Positions 2,703 to 55,638 of a stretch of DNA of 64,000 nt are shown piece by piece. The DNA comes from Armatimonadota bacterium (GTDB lineage Bacteria; Armatimonadota; HRBIN16). Under the pieces are notes generated by a model. It was given only the letters and a program-made list of their open reading frames with translations. It was not told the DNA's origin and ran no database searches. The position numbers and the translations under genes are program-made. Where the stretch lies: NCBI GenBank assembly GCA_049969495.1, contig JBMFOT010000006.1:3108-67107 (forward strand), read 5' to 3'. Positions within the stretch are counted from its first letter, which is position 1. Each line of letters begins with the position of its first letter.

Positions 2703-3353
2703 TCAGGCATTGTCGCCGTTATCGCTGCTTTCTTCTTGCTCTTCAGAGCTGCGTGCACGCCGCTTGAACGGGCGACGCAGTACAATCTGCTTATAGTCCA
2801 GTCCCGCGGCTTGCAGAGCCTTATCCCATGATTCGAAGCGGCGTCGCGCTGCTGTGATAAGCGGGATGTCCACCTCTTCTACGTTCTTGGCGTTCAACGG
2901 CACGCCCTGCTCGTACAGCTCGCGTACCCGCTTGATGATGGTCTCTTCGTCCCACTGATGGTAGCGACGCACTTCCTGGTAGTCAATGCCTGCGGCTTCA
3001 ATCGCCTTGCGCCACGAGCCAAAATGCTTGGGTTTGGTCGCTGCCGCGGCTAACTGCGGGTCTAGATTGGTGCTGACATTGCGCCATGACAGGTCTTCTC
3101 CCTGCTCGTACAGCTCACGGATGCGAGCGATGATACGCTGGCGGTTCCAGCTGCGGTACTTGCGCACCTTGTCGTAGTCGACACCAGCTGCCTTTACCGC
3201 CTCGCGCCAGCTGCCGTAGTAACGCATTGCTGCCCGCATCAACGGCAGGTGGTGAATCACCACGTTAGAGTAGGAAAGGTCCACCCCCTCTTCAGCCAGC
3301 TGCCGAATGTCCTCGGCAATGCTCTCTTTAGTCCATCGCTTGGATGTCATCAA
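2703..3353 (-). CDS. Hypothetical protein built from three tandem ~62-aa repeats (W-x-KE-I...L...G-DLS..NV...FGSW..A..AAG-DY), plus an acidic C-terminal tail
   Basis: Three internal repeats: WTKESIAEDIRQLAEEGVDLSYSNV...GSWREAVKAAGVDY, WNRQRIIARIRELYEQGEDLSWRNV...GSWRKAIEAAGIDY, WDEETIIKRVRELYEQGVPLNAKNV...ESWDKALQAAGLDY. They resemble the homing-endonuclease-associated repeat, but no nuclease domain is present. Confidence 0.6.
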   Translation of the reverse strand: MMTSKRWTKESIAEDIRQLAEEGVDLSYSNVVIHHLPLMRAAMRYYGSWREAVKAAGVDYDKVRKYRSWNRQRIIARIRELYEQGEDLSWRNVSTNLDPQLAAAATKPKHFGSWRKAIEAAGIDYQEVRRYHQWDEETIIKRVRELYEQGVPLNAKNVEEVDIPLITAARRRFESWDKALQAAGLDYKQIVLRRPFKRRARSSEEQEESSDNGDNA

Positions 3354-3638: not shown

Positions 3639-4688
3639 CTAGCCTCCCAACGCCTGTTCCACCGCCTCCAGCAGCTGACGACGCCGGTAGGGCTTCTGAA
3701 GATAGAACACCACGTTGGGGACGTTTTCCACCTGCTCAGCCACCTCCGTGCCGTAACCGCTACAAAGAATGACAGGCAAACCGGGATCCATTTGACAAAC
3801 CTGCCGTGCCAGTTCGATACCGCTTAAGCCCGGCATGGTCAGGTCGGTGATGAGTAGTCGATAGTAGGACGTCCCTCGCTCACGTATCATCTGCAACGCC
3901 TCCTCGCCGCTGGAGGCGGTTTCCACCTCATATCCCTCCTGCCGAAGCACATGCGTGACCATCTCGCGAATGGGCGCCTCGTCGTCGACAAACAACACTC
4001 GTATTGCGTGAAACGGACGGCGCACAACCGGCTCGTTGCTGGTCTGGGGCACATCTTCTGTTTCCGACAGCGCAGGCAGCAGAATGCGAAAGCATGTGCC
4101 CACTCCGACATAGGAGCGTACCTCGACGCCTCCGCCGTGTGCCAGCACAATGCCGTACACGGTCGCCAGCCCCAGCCCGGTGCCTCTGCCCACCGGCTTG
4201 GTGGTGAAGAAAGGCTCAAAGATGTGCGGTAAATGCTCTGGCGGGATGCCTCCGCCGGTATCCTCCATAATGTAGCGACGGTTTTGCAGGTTGAGCAAGG
4301 AGGTATAGACCTCTACCTGCAGTAAGGAGCCATCAGCACAACGGTAGGTACGCTCTCCCAACTGCCAGTAGCCATGCTGAAGCACCCTCTGGATGTTGCG
4401 ACGGATGTTCTCCTCGCTGTCCTCAGGCAAGTCGAAGATACTCATTTGGGCGATTTGCTCCGAGGAATAGCCGAACATGCCCAGGAAGGCTCCGTTCACC
4501 TCGATGAAGTTCCCTGTATCCGCATCGAATAAAAAGATGCCGTCCTGAGCGCATTCAAACAATGCGCGATAGCGTGTCGCATTTTCTTCTACTGGTTCCA
4601 TCATGGAATGCGCCTTCTTCCCAACGAGTGGTCGTGTACCATAGGTCGTAGATGGCAAACCTGTTCCGAACCTCTTCGTGTACCCCAA
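3639..4688 (-). CDS. PAS sensor / truncated HATPase_c / response-regulator receiver fusion protein lacking a HisKA phosphoacceptor domain
   Basis: The PAS domain (RYRALFECAQDGIFLFDADTGNFIEVNGAF...) is followed directly by the kinase G-boxes (DTGGGIPPEHLPHIFEPFFTTKPVGRGTGLGLATV) and a REC domain (VLFVDDEAPIREMV...LITDLTMPGLSGIEL...VILCSGY). No H-box is found. An alternative start is M29 at 4604. Confidence 0.75.
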   Translation of the reverse strand: MGYTKRFGTGLPSTTYGTRPLVGKKAHSMMEPVEENATRYRALFECAQDGIFLFDADTGNFIEVNGAFLGMFGYSSEQIAQMSIFDLPEDSEENIRRNIQRVLQHGYWQLGERTYRCADGSLLQVEVYTSLLNLQNRRYIMEDTGGGIPPEHLPHIFEPFFTTKPVGRGTGLGLATVYGIVLAHGGGVEVRSYVGVGTCFRILLPALSETEDVPQTSNEPVVRRPFHAIRVLFVDDEAPIREMVTHVLRQEGYEVETASSGEEALQMIRERGTSYYRLLITDLTMPGLSGIELARQVCQMDPGLPVILCSGYGTEVAEQVENVPNVVFYLQKPYRRRQLLEAVEQALGG

Positions 4689-6353: not shown

Positions 6354-8675
6354 TTATTCCATATTTCGATTCTCGGCACGCAACCTCCTGCTAGTGCAAC
6401 ACGCACACCCCACCAGCCACCCCACCGCAACCAGCGCAAGATAAAGGCACACCTTCAACAGCGCGGGAGCGAAGCGCAGGGTGATTTCCTGCGCTCCGTC
6501 GACAACCTGCACCCGCTGGAAAGTGCCGTCCAGCGGTTCTATGGCTCCCGATGGCTCCGCTTCCCAACCCGGGTAAAAGGTCTGCATCACATGCAGTTCC
6601 CGTGCCCCATCAGGTAGAAACACCTGCAGGCGGTTGCATCCCTGCCAGCGGAAGGCGCATTGGTGACCATCTGCGGTGCGAACCCATGAGCGTGCGCCGG
6701 GCACCTCGTAAAGCCTTCCCTCCGGGCTGTCGTGGATAAGACGTAAGCCATGCTCAGCAAGCGGTTGCAACGAAAGCACATAGCGTACCCCCACGTTTGC
6801 GAGCAAGTCTGCAGGGGCACGCCAACCCAGCGCCATATTGCCGTTTTCCACCGGTGCAGAATCTCTGCCGTTTAAACCGTCCAGCCAGCGTTTTGCGTGC
6901 AGAGGCATCAGCGAGTCGTAGATTTGCAGGTCGTACAACCCCGCTGCCGTCGCCAGATTAGGGGGCAGTATCGCCAGCGGTGCGCGATAGAGGCTCCAGC
7001 CCCTCTGCACCGCGAAGATGCGCCACTTGCCATCGGTTAGCGATTGCAGCCGCTCCACCAGCGACGTATCAGGGTAAACGCTTTGAGCGGAGGCGAGCGG
7101 ATTGTAGCCCATCCCTGCCATCCACAGGCTGCCCAGCACGCAGGTAACTGCGACCACGTGCGTGAGCAGAGGGCTCCAGCCGCGCTTCTGCCCGAAGAGT
7201 ACCGCTCCCGCAGCCAGCGCGGATAGCGCCAGTCCCTGCAACAGCAGAGGAGCCTGCGAGGAGAACAGCTCGGCAAACGCCTCTTCGCCCAGCGATTCCA
7301 CGCTCAACGCTCTTGCCGAAAGAGTGCCTGTGACGAACAGCGCCAGAAGAACGCCAATCGCCGACAACCATTGCTTACGTGAAGCGGTGGTCAGTTCGTC
7401 CATGCCCGCTCCTGCCAGCAACGCGACACCAAACGCCCACAGCACGAGCACGCGCGCGGGAGAGCCGGTGCCGCTGAAACCGGGCACGCCAAAGTAGAGC
7501 AAGGCGTTCAGAGGTGTGCCCAGAGCCAGAAGCATTGCCAGCACCGCCAGCAACAGCGCGTAAAGACGCCATGCGGAACGGCGGCTGAAAAGCCCTAAAG
7601 CCGCCAGCAGAAGCGTGGGTACACCCACGAAGCAGGCAAACTCAGCGTAATTGCCTTTGCCCCAGTAGGTGCTGACATCGGGCTCGTCGGTGCGGGCGAC
7701 GCCCGGGTGACCGAAGAAGTCCGGTAGGAAGAGGGTGATGAGATGGGCGAGGGGCATGGCACTGCCCACGTAGGCGGAGTACCCTTCCGCTGTTGCGGGG
7801 GCGCGCCGGTGGGAGAAGCGTGACATCTCCACAGCAGGCAGTACCTGCGGCGCGCTCAGTGCAAGGGCAAGCACGAAGGCGAGCATAAAGCCTCCTGCTG
7901 TCATCCCTCTCCCTGTGGGAGAGGGGCTGGGGGAGAGGTTTCTTCGGCACAGGAACGCCAAGCATACCACCACCAGTATCCCCGCCCCCAGCACGTAAAA
8001 CGCAATCTGCAGATGCCCTGCCAGCAAGCAGAAGCCCATCGTTGTGCCCCACCATGTGGCGCGATGCAGTGTCGGCTGGGCTGTCCATCGAGCGGCTGTC
8101 AGCACAACCCACGGCAACCATGAAGCTGTCGCCGGCACGGAGGGCAGATACTGCCACGTAACCATCCACAGAGAGAAAGCGAAGACCATCGCGCCTACCA
8201 GCGCAGAGGCGAACCCTACACCTGCTTGCCTGCGCATCAGCAACCAGGTGCCCATCCCCGCCCACCACAGATGCCACGCCGCAAGCCATCCGAACGCCCT
8301 TTCCTGAAGCCAGGCAAACAGCACGTTTGGCGGGTAGAAGATGGCGGACTGACTGTTGGCGTAGAGGGGATAACCCATGCCCTGGTGGGGGTTCCACAGG
8401 GGCAACCATCCTTCGCGCCACATCTTGGCGGTGTACAACCGCCACACGCCGAACTGCGCCGCGCCATCCCACATCAGCGGGTTCCAGGGAGGCGGCGTCT
8501 CGGTGGAAAGGGCACGATAGGGGTACACATGAAATAACAGGCGTGTGGGAAGCCACACACGCCCGCCTGTCAGCACAGGAAAGAGAAACCACCACACCAG
8601 CAGAGCTAGTATCAGCCCCGCCAGCGCGGTTTCTCTAGAACTGGAGAAACTGGATTTGCTTGAGCGCGACCTCAT
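6354..8675 (-). CDS. YfhO-like polytopic membrane protein (putative glycosyltransferase/flippase-like)
   Basis: Many TM helices. The WNPHQGMGYPLYANSQSAIFYPPNVLFAWL region is typical of the YfhO family. The track start at 8756 would overlap the co-directional TPR gene by 122 nt, so the internal Met at 8675 is preferred but uncertain. Confidence 0.65.
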   Translation of the reverse strand: MRSRSSKSSFSSSRETALAGLILALLVWWFLFPVLTGGRVWLPTRLLFHVYPYRALSTETPPPWNPLMWDGAAQFGVWRLYTAKMWREGWLPLWNPHQGMGYPLYANSQSAIFYPPNVLFAWLQERAFGWLAAWHLWWAGMGTWLLMRRQAGVGFASALVGAMVFAFSLWMVTWQYLPSVPATASWLPWVVLTAARWTAQPTLHRATWWGTTMGFCLLAGHLQIAFYVLGAGILVVVCLAFLCRRNLSPSPSPTGRGMTAGGFMLAFVLALALSAPQVLPAVEMSRFSHRRAPATAEGYSAYVGSAMPLAHLITLFLPDFFGHPGVARTDEPDVSTYWGKGNYAEFACFVGVPTLLLAALGLFSRRSAWRLYALLLAVLAMLLALGTPLNALLYFGVPGFSGTGSPARVLVLWAFGVALLAGAGMDELTTASRKQWLSAIGVLLALFVTGTLSARALSVESLGEEAFAELFSSQAPLLLQGLALSALAAGAVLFGQKRGWSPLLTHVVAVTCVLGSLWMAGMGYNPLASAQSVYPDTSLVERLQSLTDGKWRIFAVQRGWSLYRAPLAILPPNLATAAGLYDLQIYDSLMPLHAKRWLDGLNGRDSAPVENGNMALGWRAPADLLANVGVRYVLSLQPLAEHGLRLIHDSPEGRLYEVPGARSWVRTADGHQCAFRWQGCNRLQVFLPDGARELHVMQTFYPGWEAEPSGAIEPLDGTFQRVQVVDGAQEITLRFAPALLKVCLYLALVAVGWLVGCACCTSRRLRAENRNME
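7905..7938. repeat. REP-like GC-rich palindrome (CCCTCTCCC-tgt-GGGAGAGGG plus GGGGGAGAGG) embedded in-frame in the YfhO-like CDS
   Basis: Same hairpin family as the intergenic copies at 31412-31520, 35399-35449 and 36018-36068. Here it encodes the low-complexity loop ...NLSPSPSPTGRGM... in the protein. Confidence 0.4.
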
Positions 8676-17479: not shown

Positions 17480-19456
17480 TCAAAACACCGTGCTCAGCTG
17501 AACGACCGCCACACCGCCTCGCTCCTTGTCACTGCCCAGCAAGGAGTAGGAGGCGACCCCCTTCGCATCATAGAAAATCGCCTGATAGAGGGCGCGTAGC
17601 ACGGTGTCTCTGCTCAGGTCGTACTGCACGCCGAAGGTAGCGTAATGTTCTGTGGGCTTGCCCGGCGCGGATAGCCCTGCCCCCGGATTGAATCGCTGGG
17701 GGTCCTTCAGGTTCCACAGTGCCCCCTCGTAGGTCAGGCTTAATCCCCATCGGCGAACAGCTTGCCATTGCGCATGGAACACCAGGTGAAGCAATTCGTC
17801 ATCCGTGCCGAAGCCTGCGGGAGGAGCAGCTTTGCCCGTGCCGGCGTAGAAGCCACCGCGCGCATCCACTGCCACACTGCCAATGCGCGTGCGCAGTCCT
17901 GCGTCCACGCCGCGCAGGTCGGTGGGATTATGCCAGTAGCCGATGCGCCCCCAGTAGCCGGGAGGCGCAAAATACGGGCGGAAGTCACGGTAGCCCAACC
18001 AGATCAGCGCATCTTTGCCTGCATTGTACTGAACCCTCGCCAAAAACGCCCAGTTGTCCTTGTTCAAACGGTTATCGCCATGATGCAACAGGTCGCTTTG
18101 TGAATAAACGGCAGAGATGTTCCACCGGTCAGAGGGCGCGAAGTTCACCTGCCATCCCCAGACGTTTACCTGATTCACGGTTCCGAAGACGGTGGGCACA
18201 TCCTGCCAGGCGTCTAAAGTCAGGAACTGTGCGCCTACGCTGATGGTGTGTCCAAGCCGGAATGTGGCAGATGCGCCGGCACTGTGTCGTGCGTGCACGA
18301 TGCCGTAGGGGATGCGGTTGGGACGCTGGCGCAGAGGATTCCCCGGCTGAAACAGATTGACCGCGTCGTTGCCCGCGGAAACGCGCATGAGGTCGGAAAG
18401 CAGGTTGGTGTTCACGGTATTATGTCGGGCGGCGTATAACATCACGCTTACCAGGTCGGTATCCATCTGGAACTGGAGGCCATCCATGCTGTAGTAGCCG
18501 TTGTCGTAACGAGGGAGCAGAGTGTATACATCCAGGTCGGGGCGCCACAGGGTCAGCGGGGTCATGCGGTTCTCGATTCGGCCAACCGCGATACTGCCCT
18601 GCCTGCCGAAAAGAGAGACGGGCAAACGCACGTTCGCTTTCCACAAAAGGAAATCCGTAGCGCCAGGCGCACGGGAGGCACCCGGTGCAAACTGGGAAGC
18701 GGAACCGAAGTATGTCAGGGCGTTTCCCACCACCAGCGCGGCTTCGGCAAGCACCGATGGCGATAGTTCGCCACGCACCTGCAGGCTCAACTCCTGTAAG
18801 GCTTGCACATTGTTCAACAAACCGCCTTGGTAAGCGTAGCCGTTTTGGTCTATGACACCTTTGTGATCGATGCCATGTGCGCCGCGCCCAACCATATCCA
18901 GTGTGCCGCTGACCTGAGCCCGCTGGCGTATCCTCTGCTGCAGGGAACGGATCTGGTTTTCGGTCCCTGAAATCTCGGAGCGCAAGCGACGCACATCCTC
19001 GCCCAGCGTTTGCAGGTCGCGCCCGAACTCTTCCAGCAGACGGTTCAGCGTGCGTACCTGCTCCTCCAACCTCTGCAGCCGCTCGCCGACGTTATCGGGA
19101 ATCTGCCTCAGTTTCTCCCTGTCGGCGGCGAGAGTATCGAAATCGACAACCTGGGGAGGGTTGATCACCGGAGGCGGAGGCACTAGAATACGCTGTCGCA
19201 GCTCGTCCCTCAAATCGTTGACGCGGCTTCTTGTCTCTTGAAGGGCGTCGCGCAGCGCCACAGCAAACTCGTAGCGCGTGACCGGCGATGTGCCCCGGAA
19301 GGCGCCATCAGGATAGCCCTTCAAGACACCCTGCCGAATCAACATTTGCACCGCCTCGTATGCCCAGTGTCCGGGAGGAACGTCCTGCTGGGCGGAAGCG
19401 GTAACGGACATGCCCAGAACAATTGCCAGAACCACAGGCGGTACAAGGCGATTCAC
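17480..19456 (-). CDS. SLH-domain outer-membrane porin (OmpM/Slp-like: SLH + coiled coil + C-terminal beta-barrel)
   Basis: Signal peptide. SLH motif (PPGHWAYEAVQMLIRQGVLKGYPDGAFRGTSPVTRYEFAVAL). Coiled-coil region, then a long beta-strand-rich C-terminus ending in an aromatic residue (F). Confidence 0.85.
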   Translation of the reverse strand: MNRLVPPVVLAIVLGMSVTASAQQDVPPGHWAYEAVQMLIRQGVLKGYPDGAFRGTSPVTRYEFAVALRDALQETRSRVNDLRDELRQRILVPPPPVINPPQVVDFDTLAADREKLRQIPDNVGERLQRLEEQVRTLNRLLEEFGRDLQTLGEDVRRLRSEISGTENQIRSLQQRIRQRAQVSGTLDMVGRGAHGIDHKGVIDQNGYAYQGGLLNNVQALQELSLQVRGELSPSVLAEAALVVGNALTYFGSASQFAPGASRAPGATDFLLWKANVRLPVSLFGRQGSIAVGRIENRMTPLTLWRPDLDVYTLLPRYDNGYYSMDGLQFQMDTDLVSVMLYAARHNTVNTNLLSDLMRVSAGNDAVNLFQPGNPLRQRPNRIPYGIVHARHSAGASATFRLGHTISVGAQFLTLDAWQDVPTVFGTVNQVNVWGWQVNFAPSDRWNISAVYSQSDLLHHGDNRLNKDNWAFLARVQYNAGKDALIWLGYRDFRPYFAPPGYWGRIGYWHNPTDLRGVDAGLRTRIGSVAVDARGGFYAGTGKAAPPAGFGTDDELLHLVFHAQWQAVRRWGLSLTYEGALWNLKDPQRFNPGAGLSAPGKPTEHYATFGVQYDLSRDTVLRALYQAIFYDAKGVASYSLLGSDKERGGVAVVQLSTVF

Positions 19457-19592: not shown

Positions 19593-21521
19593 TTAGAACT
19601 TCACGCTGAACTGCGCCACTGCCACACCAGCGCGGGCTTTGTCATCGCCCGGGATCACACGCCATGGGACGACACCCTTGGCGTTGAAGTCCACCACCTG
19701 GTAGAGCAGTTTGAGCAGTGCGTTGTCGCCCACCTTGTAGTCTACGCCCAGCGTGACGTAGTTCTCCGTCGGCTTGGCGCCGGCTGCGGAGGTCTTGAGA
19801 TTCCACAGAACGCCCTCGTAGGAGACGTTCAGGTTCAGCTTCTCGGTGGCGTTCCACAGCACACCGGCTGCGACGTGGGTAATCTCATCGTCCTTGCCGA
19901 CGAAGCTCGCCGGGCGGTTGCTACCCTTGTAGAAGCCGCCCTTCGCATCGATGGCGAACGCACCCAGCTTCCATGCCAGGGCGACATCCGCGCCCTTGAT
20001 GTCGGTCGGGTTGTGCCAGTAGCCGATGCGTCCCCAGTAACCAGGGGCGGCGAAGTACGGACGCACCTCGCGATAGCCTGCGCTCACCGACAGGTTCTCG
20101 CCGAAGGTGTAGCCCACACCCACCAGCAACGCCCAGTTGTCCTTGTTGTTGACGTTAGTCGTCTGACGCAGCAGGTCGCTCTGGGCGTAGTCGGCGGTGA
20201 TGGTCAGGCGGTCGATCAGGTTCGCCTTCAGGTGACCACCGTATACGTTCAGGCGGTTTACGTTGCCGAACGGGGCGACCGCGGTGGTACCCAGCTTCGC
20301 GGTGATAACTTCACCGCTCAGGCTGACCTTCTCGCCCAGGTTCACGTCTACGGTTGCACCCGCACTGCTGTCGAACGCACCGATGCCCGCCACCGTGGCG
20401 GTTGCGGGGTGCGCTGCGGCCACGTTCGGGGACGCGCCGATGCCACCGTGAAGTGCCATGAAGTTTGTGCCGTTGTTGGTGTTCACGTTGCTGTTGCGAG
20501 CAGCGAACAGCCCGATTTGCACCGAGCCGAATCCCACCGATGCCTTCGCACCATCCATGCTGTAGTAGCCGTTATCGTAGCGATCGATGCTGGTGTAGAC
20601 ATCCACATCGGGTCGCCACAGGGTCAACGGGTTGATGCGGTTCTCGAAGCGACCGATAGTCAGGTTGACCTCGGTGCCGAACACGCTAATCGGCGCGTTG
20701 ACCGCGGCTTTCCACAGCACGATGTCGGTGTTGGTCGCTGCCGGGCGAAGGCCGAACTGCGATGCCGAGCCGAGGTAGGGCAGCCAGTTGCCGACCACTA
20801 GGCTCACATCGGCAGAAGCGGTGTCGCTGAGCTTGCTGCTGATGTTCAGCCCCAGCTCGTGCAACACGCTCAGGTTGCCCAGCAAGCCACCGGGCGCGGT
20901 CGGCTGCGCGTTCTGGTCGATGGCGGTGCGGTTGTCGATGCTGTTGGTGCCGCGCACCACAAAGGTGACGTCACCGCTGAGACGGAACCGCTTCATCTCC
21001 TCCTCGATCGCCTCGACACGCTTGCGCAGGTTGGCAAGGTCTCGCTTGGCGGACTCCACGTCCACACCCAGCGAAGCCAGCTCATCCTGGAACTCCGTGG
21101 CGAGGCGGTTAATACGCGCGATCGCCTCGTCCAGTCGCTGCAGTCTCTGCGCGGTGTCCGCCGGTATCGACTGCAGCTTCGCACGCTCCTCCTGGGTGAT
21201 TCCAGGCTGAGGTGCTGGAGGTTGCGGAGGCTGGCTGGGCTGTCCGCCTCCTCTCGGAATCTGCGCCCTCACCTCGTCGATCTGCTGTCGAATCGCGGCG
21301 AGCGCGTCGCGGATAGCGATGGCAAACTCATACCGCGTCAGCGGTGCCTTCCCCTTGAAGGTTCCATCCGGGTAACCCTTGATGATGCCATCGCGCATCA
21401 GCTCCTCGATAGCATCATAAGCCCAGTGCCCAGGTGGAACATCGGGGGGCACTTGTGCCCAGGCGTTGCCAGCGAAGGTCATCGCGATGGCGACACCCAA
21501 GCCGATTAACAGACGTTTCAT
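19593..21521 (-). CDS. SLH-domain outer-membrane porin paralog (OmpM/Slp-like)
   Basis: Same architecture as 17480-19456: signal peptide, SLH motif (PPGHWAYDAIEELMRDGIIKGYPDGTFKGKAPLTRYEFAIAI), a proline/glutamine linker, coiled coil, beta-barrel, C-terminal F. AAGGAGGAGGG SD. Confidence 0.85.
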   Translation of the reverse strand: MKRLLIGLGVAIAMTFAGNAWAQVPPDVPPGHWAYDAIEELMRDGIIKGYPDGTFKGKAPLTRYEFAIAIRDALAAIRQQIDEVRAQIPRGGGQPSQPPQPPAPQPGITQEERAKLQSIPADTAQRLQRLDEAIARINRLATEFQDELASLGVDVESAKRDLANLRKRVEAIEEEMKRFRLSGDVTFVVRGTNSIDNRTAIDQNAQPTAPGGLLGNLSVLHELGLNISSKLSDTASADVSLVVGNWLPYLGSASQFGLRPAATNTDIVLWKAAVNAPISVFGTEVNLTIGRFENRINPLTLWRPDVDVYTSIDRYDNGYYSMDGAKASVGFGSVQIGLFAARNSNVNTNNGTNFMALHGGIGASPNVAAAHPATATVAGIGAFDSSAGATVDVNLGEKVSLSGEVITAKLGTTAVAPFGNVNRLNVYGGHLKANLIDRLTITADYAQSDLLRQTTNVNNKDNWALLVGVGYTFGENLSVSAGYREVRPYFAAPGYWGRIGYWHNPTDIKGADVALAWKLGAFAIDAKGGFYKGSNRPASFVGKDDEITHVAAGVLWNATEKLNLNVSYEGVLWNLKTSAAGAKPTENYVTLGVDYKVGDNALLKLLYQVVDFNAKGVVPWRVIPGDDKARAGVAVAQFSVKF

Positions 21522-31411: not shown

Positions 31412-31520
31412 CAAGGGGAGAGGCGTTCTTGCTACCCCTTGTCTTACCTCACCCCCGTCCCCTCTCCTACGAGGAGAGGGGGGCGTTCCCCCTTCCCTGC
31501 GAGGGAAGGGGGCTAGGGGG
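31412..31520. repeat. Cluster of three GC-rich REP-like hairpins (CAAGGGG..CCCCTTG; CCCTCTCCT-acg-AGGAGAGGG; CCCCCTTCCC-tgcg-AGGGAAGGGGG)
   Basis: Inverted repeats read directly downstream of the deacetylase stop. Same CCCTCTCC/GGAGAGGG family as at 7905, 35399 and 36018. Confidence 0.5.
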
Positions 31521-33857: not shown

Positions 33858-33964
33858 GGGCTTTTTGTGCCTGAGCAAGGGAAACCCTGCGCGAACGGCG
33901 AAAGGAAAAGTGAATGGGATGCGAAGACAATTGCGCAGGGAATCAGTCGAAGGGGGAAGGAACG

Positions 33965-35407
33965 ATGCACAAGCTTTCGCGACGACGCTTCTTGCAGGAT
34001 TCGCTGGCACTGCTGGCGGTCAGTGCACTGCCCGCTCCCGTTTTCGCCTCGGTCAAGGTGGCTCGTAAGCAAGCCAGCTCCAACGAGCGCATCGGCGCGG
34101 CGGTCATCGGCTTCAACGGGCAGGGCAAAAGCCACATCCGTCAGCTGCTGGCTCAACCCGATGTGGACCTGGTGGCGCTGTGCGACGTGGACGAGGCGGT
34201 ATGGCCCATCGGACTGAAGATTGTGGAAGACGCGGGCAGACCCAAACCCAAAACCTATCAGGACATCCGCAAACTGCTGGAAGACAAGGACGTGGACGTG
34301 GTGACCATCGCCACGCCCAATCACTGGCACGCACTCGCCGCTATCTGGGCGATGATGGCGGGCAAGGATGTGTATGTTGAAAAGCCCTCTAGCCATAACG
34401 TGTGGGAAGGTCGCCGCACGGTAGACATTGCCCGACAGCTGGGGCGCATCTGCCAAGTGGGCACGCAGATTCGCTCCTCCGAAGGCATCCGCCAGGCGAT
34501 GCAGTACCTGCACGAGGGCAAGCTGGGCAAGGTGTACCTGGCGCGCGGACTGTGCTATAAACGACGCGATTCTATCGGCAAGGTACCCGGGCCACAGGAA
34601 CCACCCGCCACGGTAGACTACGACATCTGGCTGGGACCCGCGCCCAAGAAGCCTGTGATGCGCCAGCGGTTCCATTACGACTGGCACTGGTTCTGGGACT
34701 ACGGCAACGGCGACCTGGGTAACCAGGGTGTGCACCAGATGGACATCGCCCGCTGGGGCTTGAACAAGAATACCCTGCCGAACAAGGTGCTGGGCTTGGG
34801 CGGGCGCTTCGGCTATGTGGACGACGGTGAGACGCCCAACACCGAGCTGGTCTTCTGCGACTACGGCGATAGCCAGCTCATCTTCGAAGTGCGCGGGCTG
34901 GAGACCCCCGACCTGAAGGGCGTCAAGGTCGGTAACATCTTCTACGGCGAGAAGGGTATCATGGTCATCCCCAGCTACAGCCAGGCGATTGTGTTCGACA
35001 ACGACGGCAACAAGGTGACCGAGTTCGGCGCGGGTGGCGACCACATGCGCAACTTCCTCGACGCGGTGCGCAGCCGAAAGCACACCGACCTGCACGCCGA
35101 CATCGAAGAGGGGCATCTCTCCAGCGCGTTGTGTCATCTGGGCAACATCTCCTATCGGCTGGGTGAGCTGGTACCCTTTGACGCCGAGAAGAAAGCCTTC
35201 GGGGATAACAAGGAGGCTTACGAGACCTTTGCCCGCTTCGAGGAGCACCTCGCGGCAAACAACATCGTGCTGCGGGAAACAAAGTATCGCCTGGGACGCG
35301 AACTGCAAATTGATGCCCACCACGAAACCTGCGGGCGCGATTCGCGGGCGAACCGTTTGCTCACCCGCGAGTACCGAAAACCCTACGTCGTGCCAGAGAA
35401 GGTGTAG
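33965..35407 (+). CDS. Gfo/Idh/MocA-family oxidoreductase with twin-arginine (Tat) signal
   Basis: MHKLSRRRFLQDSLALLAVSALPAPVFA (Tat motif SRRRFLQ) and a Rossmann fold (IGAAVIGFNGQGKSHI). Start refined to 33965. The stop TAG is supplied by the 51-bp repeat. Confidence 0.85.
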   Translation: MHKLSRRRFLQDSLALLAVSALPAPVFASVKVARKQASSNERIGAAVIGFNGQGKSHIRQLLAQPDVDLVALCDVDEAVWPIGLKIVEDAGRPKPKTYQDIRKLLEDKDVDVVTIATPNHWHALAAIWAMMAGKDVYVEKPSSHNVWEGRRTVDIARQLGRICQVGTQIRSSEGIRQAMQYLHEGKLGKVYLARGLCYKRRDSIGKVPGPQEPPATVDYDIWLGPAPKKPVMRQRFHYDWHWFWDYGNGDLGNQGVHQMDIARWGLNKNTLPNKVLGLGGRFGYVDDGETPNTELVFCDYGDSQLIFEVRGLETPDLKGVKVGNIFYGEKGIMVIPSYSQAIVFDNDGNKVTEFGAGGDHMRNFLDAVRSRKHTDLHADIEEGHLSSALCHLGNISYRLGELVPFDAEKKAFGDNKEAYETFARFEEHLAANNIVLRETKYRLGRELQIDAHHETCGRDSRANRLLTREYRKPYVVPEKV

Positions 35408-35449
35408 CCCTCACTCTCCCCCCTCTCCCAGGCGTCGGGAGAGGGGGCT
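35399..35449. repeat. 51-bp direct repeat, copy A (AAGGTGTAGCCCTCACTCTCCCCCCTCTCCCAGGCGTCGGGAGAGGGGGCT), containing the CCCCTCTCCC/GGGAGAGGGG hairpin
   Basis: Identical at 51/51 to 36018-36068. It provides the last two codons plus stop (K-V-stop) of the oxidoreductase gene. Confidence 0.85.
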
Positions 35450-35525
35450 TGACGGTTTGTTCCGCAACGCTACCTGTGCTAAAATAATGGAGGAGTGTAC
35501 TTGAAACTGTGTGTTAGGGACAAGT

Positions 35526-35750
35526 ATGAGTGGAAGACAGCTACGAGGGCTGAAAGGGGAAGAGGTTATCAAAGCTTTTGAAAGAGCGGGAGGCGTTGTG
35601 CGCAAAGGGAAAGGAAGTCATGTGAACATCAAGATGCCGAACGGAGCGCTCATCACTATTCCAGTGGTATCGGAAGTCAAGGTTGGCTTGCTGAAGGCGG
35701 CGATTCACCGAGCAGGGCTCAGCGAGGAAGAGTTTATCCGTTTCCTCTAA
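35526..35750 (+). CDS. hicA: HicA-family mRNA interferase toxin
   Basis: MSGRQLRGLKGEEVIKAFERAGGVVRKGKGSHVNIKMPNGALITIPVVSEVKVGLLKAAIHRAGLSEEEF matches the YcfA/HicA fold with the conserved GSH. Candidate promoter TTGTTC-17-TAAAAT at 35457-35485. Confidence 0.85.
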   Translation: MSGRQLRGLKGEEVIKAFERAGGVVRKGKGSHVNIKMPNGALITIPVVSEVKVGLLKAAIHRAGLSEEEFIRFL

Positions 35751-35762
35751 AGGAGGAGCACA

Positions 35763-36026
35763 ATGGACTATACCGTTATCATCCACGATGCGGAAGAAGG
35801 TGGATACTGGATAGAAGTACCCGCCTTACCCGGTTGCTTCTCGCAGGGCGAGAGCATGGAAGAAGCCTTGCAAAACATCCAGGAAGCCATCGCTGTGCAC
35901 CTCGATGCTTTGGCAGAAGAAGGAAAAAGTGCCCCACCCGACATCGGCTGGATGGTGGCACGGGTAGCAGTGCCGAAGATACAGGCTCAACCAACAGCTA
36001 CACGCAAAAGGGCTCACAAGGTGTAG
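35763..36026 (+). CDS. hicB: HicB-family antitoxin
   Basis: MDYTVIIHDAEEGGYWIEVPALPGCFSQGESMEEALQNIQEAIAVHLDAL matches HicB/UPF0150. AAAGGAGG SD. The stop TAG lies inside repeat copy B. Confidence 0.85.
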   Translation: MDYTVIIHDAEEGGYWIEVPALPGCFSQGESMEEALQNIQEAIAVHLDALAEEGKSAPPDIGWMVARVAVPKIQAQPTATRKRAHKV

Positions 36027-36068
36027 CCCTCACTCTCCCCCCTCTCCCAGGCGTCGGGAGAGGGGGCT
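36018..36068. repeat. 51-bp direct repeat, copy B (identical to 35399-35449)
   Basis: Perfect duplicate. It provides K-V-stop to hicB. The hicAB cassette lies exactly between copies A and B. Confidence 0.85.
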
Positions 36069-36075
36069 CTTGTGT

Positions 36076-36294
36076 TTAGCGGGCGGTCTGCTCGCCTCCG
36101 GCTGGAGGGGCAACTCCCCCACCGCCCGGTGGTCCCATCCGCTGTGACTTGGGCAGCATCGGACCGGTGTAATAGCCGGGGGGCGGAGGCTCCTCCTTCT
36201 GTGCCTGAAAACGCAGTAGCATGGCTATGCCTACCAGCACAATGCCCACCAGTAACAGGATGAGGATGTTCTTCTGCCTGCCAGTTGCACCCAT
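36076..36294 (-). CDS. Small membrane protein with conserved GYYxGPMLPKSQR motif (paralog 1)
   Basis: MGATGRQKNILILLLVGIVLVGIAMLLRFQAQKEEPPPPGYYTGPMLPKSQRMGPPGGGG... The motif is shared with the neighbouring gene at 36352-36534. Start refined to the internal Met. Confidence 0.5.
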   Translation of the reverse strand: MGATGRQKNILILLLVGIVLVGIAMLLRFQAQKEEPPPPGYYTGPMLPKSQRMGPPGGGGVAPPAGGEQTAR

Positions 36295-36351
36295 CGCTGC
36301 TTTCCTCCACACTGCCGAAATGAAGCCCCCGCCCACAGGCGGGGGCTTCGG

Positions 36352-36534
36352 CTAATTCGTTGTCCCTTGAGCGGGTGTGCTTCCCCTCTGGCTCTTGGGA
36401 AGCATAGGACCCTCGTAGTAGCCCTCTGCCTTGGGGTCTTCTTTCTTTCCACAGGCGGTGATACTCAGGCCGATGACCACGAGCCACAAAAGGCTGAGCA
36501 CGAGCAGTATCGCTCTGACGATGCCTCTTCGCAT
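36352..36534 (-). CDS. Small lipoprotein with conserved GYYxGPMLPKSQR motif (paralog 2)
   Basis: MRRGIVRAILLVLSLLWLVVIGLSITACGKKEDPKAEGYYEGPMLPKSQRGSTPAQGTTN; signal peptide plus lipobox ITAC. Lies 4 nt downstream of the DUF1559 gene. Confidence 0.55.
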   Translation of the reverse strand: MRRGIVRAILLVLSLLWLVVIGLSITACGKKEDPKAEGYYEGPMLPKSQRGSTPAQGTTN

Positions 36535-53784: not shown

Positions 53785-54837
53785 TTAGCGGCACCGCTGC
53801 ATCGCCCATTGCAGGTGTTCGCGCACCATCGGGTCGGTTTCGTGCTGCAGTTCGCCCTGCAATACGGGTAGCGCATGTGGGTCGTTGCTGTTGCCGATGG
53901 CGACCGCGACATTGCGCCGAAAGCCTCGCCACTTTGCGCGCTTGACGGGGCTGTTGCGGAAAGCAACACGAAACTCCTCCTCACTCAGGCGCAACAGGTC
54001 TATCAGTCTGGGCGTCAGAGTGACCTCACGCGGGGTGAAGCCGGGTTCATCGGTGGGCGCGGAACGCAGCGGGGCGTGCGGGCGAGGCTGGTTGAACGGG
54101 CATACCTCCTGACAGATGTCGCAGCCGAAAATGCGGTTGCCCATCTTTGGACGCAACTCCTCTGGGATAGAGCCGCGCAGTTCGATGGTGAGGTAGCTGA
54201 TACACCGCCTCGTGTCCAGCACGTACGGGGCGACAATCGCCCCTGTAGGACACGCCTCGATGCATCGGTTGCACTTCCCGCAACCGCCAAACGCCGGCTG
54301 GTCGTACTCCAGTTCCACGTCCAGCAGGATTTCACCCAGCAGGAAATACGAACCGCGATGGGTGTTAATCAGCATGGTGTTCTTGCCGAACCAGCCCAGC
54401 CCGGCTCGCCACGCGAGGTCGCGTTCCAGCACCGGTCCGGCGTCCACGTAAATCTTCGCCCGGCAATCAGGGCGCTGCTGACGGATAAAATCCAGCAGTT
54501 GGCGCAGCTTGCGCTCCATCACCTGGTGATAGTCGTCTCCCAGCGCATAGCGGGCGAAGATGCCCCGCGATGGATCGTCAGTAACAGGAGAAACAGCAGG
54601 GGCATAGTTCAGACCGACCACCACTGCACTCTTTGCGCCGGGCAGCACCTGCTGCGGGTCACATCGGGCGTCGGCGGTGCGGGCGAGGTAAGCCATCTCT
54701 CCCGCAAACCCTTGCTCCAGCCACTTGCGGAAGAAGAGCGCGTGAGCAGGGGTTAGCACTGGAGCAAAACCCACCAGGTCAAAACCCAGAGAAAGGGCGC
54801 AAGCGCGAATTGCTTCGGATATGGTATGCTCGGTCAT
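53785..54837 (-). CDS. queG: tRNA epoxyqueuosine(34) reductase
   Basis: Two 4Fe-4S ferredoxin motifs (CGKCNRCIEACPTGAI, CDICQEVCPFN), a cobalamin-binding region and HEAT-like C-terminal repeats, in the QueG family arrangement. Confidence 0.9.
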   Translation of the reverse strand: MTEHTISEAIRACALSLGFDLVGFAPVLTPAHALFFRKWLEQGFAGEMAYLARTADARCDPQQVLPGAKSAVVVGLNYAPAVSPVTDDPSRGIFARYALGDDYHQVMERKLRQLLDFIRQQRPDCRAKIYVDAGPVLERDLAWRAGLGWFGKNTMLINTHRGSYFLLGEILLDVELEYDQPAFGGCGKCNRCIEACPTGAIVAPYVLDTRRCISYLTIELRGSIPEELRPKMGNRIFGCDICQEVCPFNQPRPHAPLRSAPTDEPGFTPREVTLTPRLIDLLRLSEEEFRVAFRNSPVKRAKWRGFRRNVAVAIGNSNDPHALPVLQGELQHETDPMVREHLQWAMQRCR

Positions 54838-55238
54838 ACCTCGAGACCGGACTGCGCCAGCTTAGCAAGCACAAACTCCCGAACCCGCTCCGCAATCTGC
54901 AGGGCTTGCCGCGCCTCCTCTACGGAGGGCATATAAAACTCATCGCCATAACGAATAGTTACGGCATAATCAGTTAGATGATCTATGTCCAGCTCGTTTA
55001 ATCTGCGAAAATCAGCATCGATATCGGCGCATCGTTCTATAAGTGCTGCCAGGGAATGAACGCGAGGAACTTCCTTTCCGTGAAAGATGAGAAAGCTCTT
55101 CAAGTACTTCTCACAACATTGCTGCATGTGAAAGCACACTGTATCGGTTATAGGGTCGTCCCTGCTCAATTCGTTTTTGCCTGTTTGGAGGTCGTTATCT
55201 GCTTTGCGCATCCAGTTTCTCACCGTATCTGCGTTCAT
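54834..55238 (-). CDS. HEPN-domain protein (putative toxin of a HEPN/MNT pair)
   Basis: MNADTVRNWMRKADNDLQTGKNELSRDD...CFHMQQCCEKYLKSFLIFHGKEVPRVHSLAALIE shows the HEPN fold. Overlaps the queG start by 4 nt. Confidence 0.7.
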   Translation of the reverse strand: MNADTVRNWMRKADNDLQTGKNELSRDDPITDTVCFHMQQCCEKYLKSFLIFHGKEVPRVHSLAALIERCADIDADFRRLNELDIDHLTDYAVTIRYGDEFYMPSVEEARQALQIAERVREFVLAKLAQSGLEV

Positions 55239-55638
55239 ATACAGGAACCCCTTCTTTGAGAACGTAGTAGGTAAGATATCCTGTATCGCTGCGCCTGCGG
55301 CATACTGTCTCTTCTGCCTGGATGAGCACATCACAATCTATCTTCTGTTTGGCAAGGAAGCGTCGTATCAGGGAGCCCATTTGCTGGCGTTGAAGAAAGC
55401 CCACTTCCTTGTCGATAACAACATAAAAATCCCAGTCGCTATCCTTGCCTGCCCCGCCCCGTGCCCGACTGCCGAACAGGTAGATTCGCACGACGTCTAC
55501 CCCATGCTGTTGCGCGACAGAGCAAATGACGTCCACCGCCTGGCGCAGCAGCTCCTGCTCTTCGGGTTTGAACGTTTCCAGTGCGTGCACGCTGCTCACC
55601 CCCAGCTCATTATAGCACCGCGCCCGTTTCGCGCGCAA
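55195..55638 (-). CDS. Minimal nucleotidyltransferase (MNT; putative antitoxin of the HEPN/MNT pair)
   Basis: RIYLFGSRARGGAGKDSDWDFYVV gives the G[SG]-x9-13-DxD nucleotidyltransferase motif. Overlaps the HEPN gene by 44 nt. Confidence 0.7.
   Translation of the reverse strand: MRAKRARCYNELGVSSVHALETFKPEEQELLRQAVDVICSVAQQHGVDVVRIYLFGSRARGGAGKDSDWDFYVVIDKEVGFLQRQQMGSLIRRFLAKQKIDCDVLIQAEETVCRRRSDTGYLTYYVLKEGVPVYERRYGEKLDAQSR

Follow-up and report, generated by a model that had tools for sequence, protein, structure and literature searches.

Integron cassette arrays, for which toxin-antitoxin (TA) cassettes are typical cargo, and CALINs, the integrase-less clusters of attC sites that often hold TA cassettes, invite comparison with the locus described here, a hicAB operon set between two direct repeats in an Armatimonadota genome. 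Shared with them are small hairpin-bounded cassettes, TA operons with their own promoter, and the gain or loss of whole units with no integrase nearby. Unlike integron arrays, the locus lacks core sites, has a perfect stem and carries repeats that include duplicated host coding sequence; it is also a single chromosomal site with at most two slots, and no IntI was found in the window, the whole 64-kb stretch of DNA that was analyzed. SCC and pseudo-SCC elements at rlmH, and e14 and phage 21 at icd, resemble the locus in that the final codons of a conserved host gene are contained in their repeats, units lie in tandem at one site, recombinase-less units persist and excision via the repeats is precise. 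SCC and e14-type elements are kilobases long and need identified Ccr or tyrosine recombinases and fixed attachment sites, whereas the units here measure 0.57–0.74 kb and are associated with palindrome-centered duplications of 57 and about 120 bp, with no recombinase found in the 64-kb window. The pdif modules of Acinetobacter plasmids are likewise small units, below or around a kilobase, that carry resistance genes or often TA operons and have short palindrome-like borders but no recombinase of their own; pdif sites, however, are 28 bp long (11-6-11), follow the XerC/XerD consensus and alternate in orientation around each module, in contrast to the present repeats, which are direct, chromosomal, of unrelated sequence and reach into the flanking genes. 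CRISPR spacer acquisition and casposons (Cas1-family) provide an analogy only, in the staggered attack on a palindromic repeat and the fill-in that duplicates it; the inserts here are operons of 565–740 bp, the duplication is variable in length, and neither Cas1 nor a casposase was found in the 64-kb window.

The repeat itself is closest in kind to REP/BIME sequences, being a G+C-rich extragenic palindrome located 3′ of a gene that recurs at several window loci. Recombination and insertion are known to concentrate at REPs, but joint duplication of a REP and a gene end on either side of an inserted operon has not, to our knowledge, been reported. The E. coli ccdO157 system, as summarized in PMC3184786 from Mine et al. 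(2009), is a TA operon in the variable, REP-containing folA–apaH intergenic region, where its presence and decay vary among strains and a REP is found in the same gap when the TA operon is absent. According to that summary it would be comparable as a chromosomal type II TA operon in a short gap between housekeeping genes with polymorphic presence, although the summary mentions no flanking duplication of REP and gene end, second cassette or concerted repeat evolution. A literature search found no description of the architecture reported here.

The upstream gene, O (33,914–35,407, forward strand), encodes a 497-residue Gfo/Idh/MocA oxidoreductase (Pfam GFO_IDH_MocA and GFO_IDH_MocA_C2) with a twin-arginine motif, RRRFLQ, visible at the N terminus of the translation; an exact look-up of the protein returned no match. 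Downstream, on the reverse strand, lie two tandem paralogous genes for small membrane proteins (36,076–36,336 and 36,352–36,534; together termed D). Between these flanks, the hicA toxin gene (35,526–35,750, forward strand, 74 residues; Pfam HicA_toxin PF07927, 1.3e-10, positions 1–58 of 58) is followed on the same strand, after a 12-nt gap, by the hicB antitoxin gene (35,763–36,026, forward strand, 87 residues; Pfam HicB_lk_antitox PF15919, 1.1e-15), which is the gene order expected of a HicAB operon. Because the profile match covers only positions 1–56 of 123 and the protein has 87 residues in a family mostly of 70–75, HicB is assigned, by length and profile coverage, to the short HicB subgroup; a C-terminal DNA-binding domain (HTH or RHH), which for autoregulation is a feature of the long subgroup, is absent from the match. 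A putative hicAB promoter (35,457–35,485, forward strand) consists of TTGTTC (35,457–35,462), a 17-nt spacer and TAAAAT (35,480–35,485), with TGC in front of the latter, in the manner of an extended −10 element. Since a consensus scan gave no sigma-70-type site at hicAB, the assignment is suggested by conservation, with TGCTAAAAT invariant in the three cassette carriers (the window genome, HR16 and L083). Comparison of composition with the neighboring gene, as the earlier note had proposed, gave a GC3 of 0.55–0.57 for hicAB versus 0.79 for the oxidoreductase gene, by which measure hicAB is foreign relative to the latter.

The cassette is bracketed exactly by two copies of a 51-mer, at 35,399–35,449 and 36,018–36,068, that are identical at 51 of 51 positions, just as the earlier note had claimed. 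The window holds exactly two occurrences of the 51-mer, with 0 mismatches, at a spacing of 619 (family D3 in the repeat search of the window), and any match was obtained in 0 of 100 shuffles. Its identity is limited by g versus c on the 5′ side and by TGACGG versus CTTGTG on the 3′ side; if a 2-nt indel is tolerated, the duplication runs on into a common TTG and then comprises copy A at 35,399–35,451 and, by sequence comparison, copy B at 36,018–36,072 (both forward strand), in agreement with the 57-bp duplication in HR16. Copy A thus contains the last 9 nt of O (AAGGTGTAG, AAG GTG TAG), a CCCTCAC spacer, a hairpin and, after the indel, the TTG. Both copies overlap the final 9 nt of a gene and the repeat gives K-V-stop to two proteins, the Tat-signal oxidoreductase and HicB, so that the proposed sharing of stop codons is borne out. 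The oxidoreductase orthologues end in EKV-stop in all relatives. The final three codons of hicB derive from the duplicated end of O, and the corresponding HKV tail is confined to the three genomes that carry the insertion. Nothing but the putative promoter, hicA and hicB lies between the repeats; here too the original reading held, with the TTGTTC-17-TAAAAT motif present and both domains identified by Pfam. The stop codon of the first D gene is located 7 nt beyond the 51-mer of copy B.

Each repeat copy includes an 11-bp stem, CCCCCTCTCCC/GGGAGAGGGGG, with a 7-nt loop. Hairpin A (35,419–35,447, forward strand) has G+C-rich arms at 35,419–35,429 and 35,437–35,447 and the loop AGGCGTC; hairpin B (36,038–36,066, forward strand) is followed by CTCTTGTGTTT. 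The 62–68-nt segments spanning each copy have a predicted fold of about −29 to −33 kcal/mol. In a terminator scan copy B scored as terminator-like (11-bp stem, then CTCTTGTGTT), while a weaker T-tract, TTGACGGTTTGTT, is found 3′ of the hairpin in copy A, and TTATTGTGTTT in HR16. From these features we infer a terminator role for the hairpin: hairpin A is probably a REP-like intrinsic terminator of O, and hairpin B is predicted to act for hicAB and is common to the convergent downstream gene. The stems are perfect duplexes of 11–14 bp that have no extrahelical bases, and the distance separating the conserved arms is nearly constant, at 7–8 nt, in every genome compared. Hairpins of the same type are located elsewhere in the window at 7,905–7,925 and about 31,450–31,480, giving, with the O–D gap, three independent loci per 64 kb (about 1 per 20 kb), and one more was found in a related genome (L090). 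The composite motif CCCTCAC...CCCTCTCCC-loop-GGGAGAGGG is also present in other phyla, including at unrelated Verrucomicrobia loci. An Rfam search of the hairpin region gave no family above threshold, and an exact 43-mer had no match in the genome contig collection searched. The hairpin is palindromic and extragenic and, dispersed as it is over further loci of the 64-kb window and of Verrucomicrobia, is of a REP-like type.

Comparison with relatives revealed the site before or without insertion. One genome (L091) has an empty site, in which the stop codon of D comes immediately after a single repeat copy (AAGGTGTAG-CCCTCAC...hairpin), which is the configuration that the earlier note had suggested looking for; in three others (L003, L005 and L092) the site is without the hairpin. 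The adjacency of O and D is kept in relatives with an empty site. The same architecture as in the window was found in independent assemblies of two further species, HR16 (L002) and L082/L083/L084/L085. By these sequence comparisons, hicAB is an insertion in the gap between O and the small genes, with the target duplicated, including the last 9 nt of O, and the suggestion that the 3′ end of the host gene had been duplicated is thereby upheld. In the oxidoreductase tree the window genome, HR16 and L083 form one clade, with the empty-site genomes outside it. The junctions CAC|AAGGTG and TTG|A are the same in all three, which are 88–93% identical in the flanking gene, and between genomes the cassette interior is 85–89% identical, a level similar to the 80–93% of the flanks. 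As three species carry identical junctions, the insertion, judged from these alignments, is not recent and predates at least three Armatimonadota species.

Perfect identity of the repeats would ordinarily point to a recent event, an expectation that is contradicted by these shared junctions and by the behavior of the repeat copies. Within a genome the copies are 100% identical over the 51-mer in the window, 90–91% in HR16 and only 81% in L083, whereas orthologous copies are 75–83% identical between genomes. The alignments thus show concerted evolution, with copies alike inside a genome and unlike across genomes, and the 51/51 identity in the window is accounted for by homogenization of the copies within that genome.

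A second cassette, phd-vapC (vapBC), with confirmed Phd/YefM and PIN domains, occupies the same site in some relatives. It is flanked by a duplication of about 120 bp that takes in 48–51 nt from the end of the oxidoreductase gene, then the hairpin, and lastly about 20 nt belonging to the downstream gene; the cassette junctions are identical in HR16, L168–L175 and L176. Concerted evolution is seen here too: in L176 the oxidoreductase remnant, 51 nt long, matches the live gene end perfectly, whereas in HR16 and L168 it has decayed and includes a stop codon. Since HR16 carries phd-vapC together with hicAB, L168–L176 carry phd-vapC alone and the other genomes lack it, the sequences define four allelic states of the site: empty, hicAB only, vapBC only and both.

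Between HR16 and L168, identity is 98.9% over the oxidoreductase gene and 98.6% over the flanks, and the two are set apart by exactly one hicAB-plus-repeat unit. Their mismatches show an even distribution, the 108 nt left of the junction and the 284 nt right of it being free of any, and this pair tested negative for a recombination tract imported beside hicAB. The hicAB-less allele was obtained from eight separate metagenome assemblies, and these sequences together show precise presence or absence of hicAB within one species. Counts of informative sites also differ between cassette and flank: for hicAB they are 13/4/4, favoring a grouping of the window genome with L083, and for the flank 33–38/17/9–13, favoring the window genome with HR16. 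By these counts, the history of hicAB is shown to be incongruent with that of its flanks, which suggests that cassette alleles have been exchanged laterally between lineages. The proposal of a small mobile cassette therefore stands in part, in that the allele at this one site appears to have been lost precisely via the repeats and exchanged among lineages, while a general use of the genome's palindromes finds no support. Elsewhere in the window, hairpins of this type have no cargo, and the window holds no recombinase, and the closest hicAB relatives, at a hydrogenase locus in L086 and L087, are without flanking repeats and without this hairpin; the repeat architecture is thus not a property of the hicAB family, and the idea that the genome's palindromes serve in general as attachment sites is not supported.

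Taken together, these data are best explained by an old hicAB insertion with target duplication, followed by turnover through homologous recombination at the repeats (probability about 0.7). A minimal type II TA operon of about 565 bp (promoter, hicA and hicB) would have entered the gap between convergent genes in the ancestor of at least three Armatimonadota species, and the whole gap, 53–57 bp comprising the last 9 nt of O, the REP-like hairpin and a few bases past it, would have been duplicated. O would thereby retain its own stop and hairpin, with hicB reading into copy B and borrowing K-V-stop and hairpin from it. Because the vapBC duplication is contiguous oxidoreductase-hairpin-downstream sequence, vapBC would have entered first and hicAB later, into the left-hand copy, an order that we infer from the sequences. 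The direct repeats would then serve as substrates for homologous recombination, presumably of the RecA type, that homogenizes the copies within a genome and, when it occurs between the repeats, deletes a whole cassette precisely and leaves one repeat; together with the conserved flanks, they would also allow cassette alleles to pass among related lineages. As a guess, entry may have proceeded by staggered breaks flanking the palindrome and fill-in, or through a Campbell-type circle bearing a copy of the site. We know of no bacterial process documented to yield target duplications of 57 and 120 bp around a hairpin. It also counts against the proposed explanation that an ancestor with both cassettes needs four independent losses; lateral exchange of alleles, as suggested by the site counts, makes loss hard to tell from gain. 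Moreover, if a simple reciprocal exchange separates HR16 from L168, its crossover has to fall within the first 11 nt of the repeat, about 20% of its length, which is possible but not the likeliest position.

An alternative is a dedicated site-specific system, in which the hairpin, with arms of 10–11 nt and a center of 7–8 nt, is the core site of an integron-like or Xer-like tyrosine recombinase encoded elsewhere, and cassettes leave as one-site circles and re-enter at hairpins. The site-cassette-site-cassette-site order of the HR16 array, the clean presence or absence of whole cassettes, the near-constant spacing of the arms in all genomes and the minimal promoter-to-stop extent of both cassettes would all be in keeping with such a system, as would a 619-bp metagenome contig (L001) that is exactly one repeat period, as expected of a circle or an assembly-graph cycle. 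The machinery is not seen: a Pfam survey of the 54 ORFs of the 64-kb window detected neither an integrase nor a transposase or RAYT, and no tyrosine recombinase such as IntI is listed in the gene tables of L082, L083, L168 and L176. Inspection by eye found neither of the core sites RYYYAAC and GTTRRRY; the window sequence has no GTT after the stem, and the GTTATTG found there in HR16 fails RRRY, so that, with a perfect stem free of extrahelical bases, the hairpin does not qualify as an attC. Dif-like sites are also absent by eye, as the arms are unlike the dif consensus, the center is 7–8 nt and the copies are direct. The repeats reach past the hairpin into 9 or 48–51 nt of O and about 20 nt of the downstream gene, and conservative exchange at a core site does not produce such extended repeats. 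On either side of the loop the single L168 copy is of H2 type, making a crossover within the loop less likely. The cargo-free hairpins and the related hicAB at another locus, where such a site is lacking, also speak against a dedicated system, which we consider unlikely.

The cassettes could instead be what is left of larger integrative elements, such as a plasmid, prophage or ICE, that entered at the 3′ end of O through attachment sites bringing a replacement for the gene end and were then reduced to their addiction modules, with CIME-like tandem accretion. Direct repeats that rebuild a gene end and tandem accretion are hallmarks of integrative elements such as e14 and phage 21 at icd or SCC at rlmH, and both are seen here: AAGGTGTAG is duplicated for hicAB, 48–51 nt of the oxidoreductase end for vapBC, and the two cassettes share one site. 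Duplications that differ in length, as for two different elements, and the resistance of TA modules to loss would also agree with such an origin. Both cassettes, however, extend exactly from promoter to stop, with about 4 nt of spare DNA 5′ of the hicAB promoter and 4 nt following vapC, while hicB, whose stop codon is part of the repeat, has none behind it, and two independent deletions of such tidiness are hardly to be expected. Neither the cassettes nor the window contains an integrase, and no integrase remnant was detected in about 15 alleles of the site examined. The relic origin is accordingly improbable. Nor do the cassettes resemble a transposon or MITE: the best end-to-end match for terminal inverted repeats did not surpass what shuffled sequence gave and was not conserved between genomes, and the duplications, 53–57 bp and about 120 bp, are neither short nor fixed.

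It is less credible still that the hairpins arrived separately, for example with each cassette bringing its own REP-like terminator, and that gene conversion extended their identity with no target duplication. Gene conversion is clearly active at the site and such hairpins are dispersed over genomes and even phyla, but conversion needs homology and cannot readily make shared stretches of 9, about 20 and 48–51 nt at three boundaries. The junctions are, moreover, the same in all lineages, whether or not their copies are homogenized, and two contiguous duplications account for every boundary with two events. We reject the view that conversion alone produced the extended identity, as it cannot create non-homologous extensions. 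An assembly artifact or chance repeat, which might be suspected in a 70,264-bp contig of a metagenome-assembled genome when a separate low-coverage assembly breaks at the hairpins, is refuted by the recurrence of the architecture in independent assemblies of three species from many samples and by the absence of any match in the 100 shuffles.

Beyond the preferred account of old insertion and turnover at the repeats, a more speculative thought, to which we attach little credence, is that the hairpin-centered duplications of 57 bp and about 120 bp are the footprint of an unrecognized insertion pathway for minimal TA operons. Staggered cleavage on both sides of an extruded hairpin at terminator palindromes, with subsequent fill-in, would generate the duplications, in formal analogy to the way CRISPR adaptation duplicates a repeat, and cassettes would cycle as circles of about 0.6–0.9 kb with one repeat each. 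The L001 contig, which may be a circle, a tandem copy or an assembly-graph cycle, would then be the trace of such a circle. If true, a recombinase-light type of cassette system would exist apart from integrons.

The site is a tidy natural-history example that varies what is already known of cassettes and repeats and, as it stands, is no new kind of system. The entry and exit of chromosomal TA operons in conserved housekeeping neighborhoods are poorly documented, and most cases are scarless. Here, one site in uncultured thermophilic (hot-spring) Armatimonadota keeps the full record: the empty site, both with the hairpin and lacking it, two insertions, one nested in the other and each marked by a long target duplication, all four allelic combinations, precise loss at ∼99% identity of the flanking gene, homogenized scars, and a cassette history unlike that of the flank. 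It also carries a warning that perfect flanking repeats do not necessarily denote a recent insertion, as gene conversion can keep old scars identical. Should long hairpin-centered duplications prove general, they would indicate an insertion route that known transposases or integrases do not explain.

The 51-mer AAGGTGTAGCCCTCACTCTCCCCCCTCTCCCAGGCGTCGGGAGAGGGGGCT occurs in the window as two exact copies, at 35399-35449 (copy A) and 36018-36068 (copy B), with no mismatches; window shuffles gave no match to it, and an independent repeat search recovered the same pair at a spacing of 619 nt. Each copy carries a hairpin with an 11-bp G+C-rich stem and a 7-nt loop. The last three codons (K-V-stop) of an oxidoreductase gene (497 amino acids, Gfo/Idh/MocA family, twin-arginine signal) lie inside copy A and those of hicB (HicB_lk_antitox, 1e-15) inside copy B, the only content between the copies being a promoter-like TTGTTC-17-TAAAAT, hicA (HicA_toxin, 1e-10) and hicB. 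The sequence, the repeat search and the domain matches agree in every detail with the earlier note's description of the repeats and of hicAB. The identity ends sharply on both sides; as both copies run on through a shared TTG once a 2-nt indel is admitted, the real duplication is 35399-35451 and 36018-36072, in agreement with a 57-bp duplication in a relative.

In form and in distribution across the window and the other loci compared, the duplicated hairpin appears to be REP-like. The composite motif CCCTCAC...CCCTCTCCC-loop-GGGAGAGGG recurs at ~31450-31480, with a simpler form at 7905-7925, and is also present at unrelated Verrucomicrobia loci. Upstream of a LacI-family regulator gene (31440-31520), tandem REP-like hairpins stand in a BIME-like arrangement (CCTCACCCCCGT-CCCCTCTCC-TACG-AGGAGAGGGG, then CCCCCTTCCC-TGCGA-GGGAAGGGGG), the first matching the duplicated hairpin in type. 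No Rfam family matched the hairpin region above threshold. A T-rich tract (CTCTTGTGTTT, TTATTGTGTTT) follows the hairpin in copy B and in the relatives, and the hairpin was scored as terminator-like; it is the predicted terminator of the oxidoreductase transcript, and its duplicated forms would also terminate hicAB and vapBC, a second toxin-antitoxin (TA) cassette found in relatives.

The flanking genes assign the window to an uncultured Armatimonadota (Chthonomonadia-like) lineage known from hot-spring metagenome-assembled genomes, the closest relative being 'Bacterium HR16' (L002), whose oxidoreductase gene is 92.8% identical at the nucleotide level. Genome and metagenome collections supplied about 15 alleles of the junction between the oxidoreductase and the downstream gene. 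The empty site that the earlier note had predicted, with one repeat copy directly followed by the downstream small-protein genes, is present in the relative L091, which reads ...GAGAAGGTGTAG-CCCTCACCCCCTG-CCCCTCTCCCA-GCGCTG-TGGGAGAGGGG-CTGCTGTTTTA, a single copy of the element leading directly into the stop of the small gene that converges on the oxidoreductase. In L003, L005 and L092 the oxidoreductase is followed directly by the small genes and the hairpin is absent, a pyrimidine tract resembling its 5' arm being all that remains in L003 and L005. A further, sister clade (L088, L089, L090 and L138) carries a different palindromic element, cTGTAGCCGCAGGC-taaa-GCCTGCG ... CTGCGGCTAC, in the 110-150 nt past the oxidoreductase stop, in place of the CCCTCTCCC hairpin; the gap is thus a recurrent landing place for REP-like palindromes, which come and go between the convergent genes. 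More than one clade has the hairpin as a native part of the site, into which hicAB was inserted. The downstream genes at 36076-36336 and 36352-36534 (reverse strand) encode tandem paralogous small membrane proteins with the common motif GYY(T/E)GPMLPKSQR and no Pfam match; every relative keeps the pair downstream of a DUF1559/prepilin-type gene, and L083 (GCA_017880035.1) has a 53-nt repeat, 77% identical, between its two copies.

The 3' end of hicB locates the insertion breakpoint. Members of this HicB family are mostly 70-75 residues long, and only the three genomes with hicAB at this site have a ...RKR(A/P)HKV tail. Nucleotide homology to the copy in L086 extends to ~5 nt short of the duplication, where the L086 hicB stops (TCG AAG GGT TAG), whereas the window hicB continues via GCT CAC into AAG GTG TAG. 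The breakpoint therefore lies at about the original stop codon of hicB, whose reading frame is now closed by sequence duplicated from the oxidoreductase 3' end. Away from the site, the nearest HicB relatives (P0004 and P0005, 86 and 73% identical) follow a hydrogenase-type operon; their hicAB loci lack flanking repeats and have a terminator hairpin of a different kind, so the architecture belongs to this site and not to the hicAB family. At the hydrogenase locus of L086 (5192-5420), codon 5 of hicA is a premature stop (ATG AGC GGA CGG TAG) and hicB is intact, which looks like toxin-first decay of the module.

The three genomes with hicAB at the site (the window genome, HR16 and L083, with L082, L084 and L085 as independent assemblies alongside the last) form one clade on the oxidoreductase tree, with empty sites outside it; their 88-93% identity in that gene is a species-level divergence. 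All three have in common the right junction ...CAC^AAGGTGTAx (^ marks the junction) and the left junction, in which the hairpin is followed by TTG (TCG in L083)^A(T/C)GGTTTG..., and the 565-bp hicAB interior is 85-89% identical between genomes, on a par with the flanks. The simplest reading of these alignments is one old hicAB insertion, in the common ancestor. The likeness of the repeat copies departs from the species tree. Within genomes, the window pair is identical over the 51-mer, the HR16 trio 90-91% alike and the L083 pair only 81% alike; orthologous copies across genomes are 75-83% alike. The loop is AGGCGTC in both window copies and AACGC(G/T)TT in every HR16 copy, and L083 has AAGGCG(TT/CC). 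This pattern is the signature of gene conversion between repeats in some lineages and, because conversion homogenises copies, the 51/51 identity is uninformative on recency.

HR16 has the hicAB unit, then a unit of a Phd/YefM antitoxin and a PIN-domain VapC toxin (vapBC), then a third hairpin copy. A longer duplication, separate from that of hicAB, flanks the vapBC cassette: to the right of the cassette, the hairpin is preceded by 48-51 nt derived from the oxidoreductase gene end, a remnant that in HR16 is decayed and has an internal stop codon, and to the left ~20 nt derived from the downstream-gene end come after the hairpin. The cassette recurs with identical junctions and without hicAB on eight metagenome contigs from an HR16-like strain (L168-L175) and in L176 (GCA_026003175.1), which is more distant. 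As the vapBC duplication consists of contiguous oxidoreductase end, hairpin and downstream-gene sequence, it formed before hicAB split those parts, which points to vapBC having entered first and hicAB later, into the left-hand copy. The site is accordingly an array with two slots, and four states of it were observed: no cassette in L091 and others, hicAB alone in the window genome and L083, vapBC alone in L168-L176, and both cassettes in HR16. The 51-nt remnant of L176 (5440-5500 versus 4580-4632) is 100% identical to the live gene end, another case of homogenisation. Its adjacent hairpin copies are more diverged than the coding remnant, with one arm mutated (CTCTCGC); conversion tracts apparently covered the coding remnant and not the hairpin.

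Cassette turnover is ongoing: HR16 and L168, with 98.9% identity in the oxidoreductase gene and 98.6% over the flanking alignments, differ by exactly one hicAB-plus-repeat unit (~620 bp). Their other mismatches are distributed evenly and leave 108 nt before the junction and 284 nt after it free of differences, so nothing in the flanks suggests a tract brought in from a divergent source. The simplest account is that recombination between direct repeats removed the unit precisely, or that the event went the other way. The sole copy in L168 is of one HR16 hairpin type (H2) at all three positions separating it from the other (H1), which would place a reciprocal exchange in the first 11 nt, outside the hairpin loop; this speaks weakly against a loop-directed recombinase, and prior homogenisation of the copies may confound it. 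In hicAB, with the L086 hicAB as outgroup, 13 informative sites group the window genome with L083 and each alternative has 4; in the flanking gene 33-38 group it with HR16, against 17 and 9-13. The cassette thus has its own history, as expected if recombination in the repeats and conserved flanks carries cassette alleles from one related lineage to another. The only other contig with an identical HicB, L001 (ENA ERZ3623746 NODE_54154), is 619 bp long, exactly one repeat period, and spans the equivalent of window positions 35442-36060, from copy A position 44 to copy B position 43 with a mismatch at the first base. Its length could reflect a repeat-caused cycle in a low-coverage assembly graph, or a real circular (excised) or tandem form of the cassette.

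Several other features of the window were observed. Directly upstream of gmk, a 233-bp insertion relative to L168 (40832-41064) codes for no more than an N-terminal portion of a nucleotidyltransferase of the MNT type (motif GIFGSYARGE) and looks like a decayed HEPN/MNT TA remnant; inspection by eye found no obvious flanking repeats at its boundaries. A HEPN-domain gene (PF05168, 1e-25) at 54834-55334 (reverse strand), between queG and a very large TPR/glycosyltransferase gene, may be another TA module. Tandem duplicate genes for SLH-domain porin-like proteins (17480-19456 and 19593-21521, reverse strand) are the source of repeat families D1, D2, D4 and D5 (spacing ~2.07-2.08 kb, 74-84% identity).

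A Pfam survey found no integrase, transposase or RAYT among 54 window ORFs, its only selfish-element hint being an ORF at 2703-3353 (reverse strand) with a homing-endonuclease-associated repeat (PF18780, 1e-20), adjoining ffh. The neighbourhood is one of housekeeping genes (ffh, glycine cleavage system, branched-chain amino acid ABC transporter, coaBC, gmk, lexA, pyruvate dehydrogenase and queG). Terminal inverted repeats were not found in either insert, and the repeat sequences, with their perfect stems, contain neither integron core sites nor dif-like sites.

The alignments establish the insertion with its two nested target duplications (53-57 bp and ~120 bp, both centred on a palindrome), its age, the concerted evolution of the copies, the precise presence or absence of cassettes and their incongruent history. 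Entry may have proceeded by staggered breaks flanking the extruded hairpin followed by fill-in, a candidate to which the repeat duplication of CRISPR adaptation is formally alike; Campbell-type entry of a circle bearing a copy of the site, and a recombinase encoded elsewhere in the genome, are further candidates. A last candidate, the decay of larger integrative elements, is hard to square with two cassettes each trimmed exactly from promoter to stop. Gene conversion alone is unable to make the non-homologous extensions at three boundaries. After entry, RecA-type homologous recombination between the repeats would explain how copies are homogenised, cassettes are lost cleanly and alleles are exchanged. 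Through the duplication each transcription unit would gain a stop codon and a terminator of its own, a probable reason why these insertions were tolerated between two intact genes.

The locus resembles integron and CALIN arrays, in which TA cassettes are bounded by hairpins, SCC and CIME elements, which accrete at a gene 3' end, pdif modules and, as summarised in PMC3184786, ccdO157 in the REP-containing folA-apaH gap of Escherichia coli. It differs from all of these in their defining features, namely core sites, a recombinase, and the sequence and orientation of the site. Literature searches turned up no account of TA operons between duplicated segments that combine a terminator with a gene end, and the locus is a well resolved example of the gain of TA cassettes, the homogenisation of their scars and their loss.
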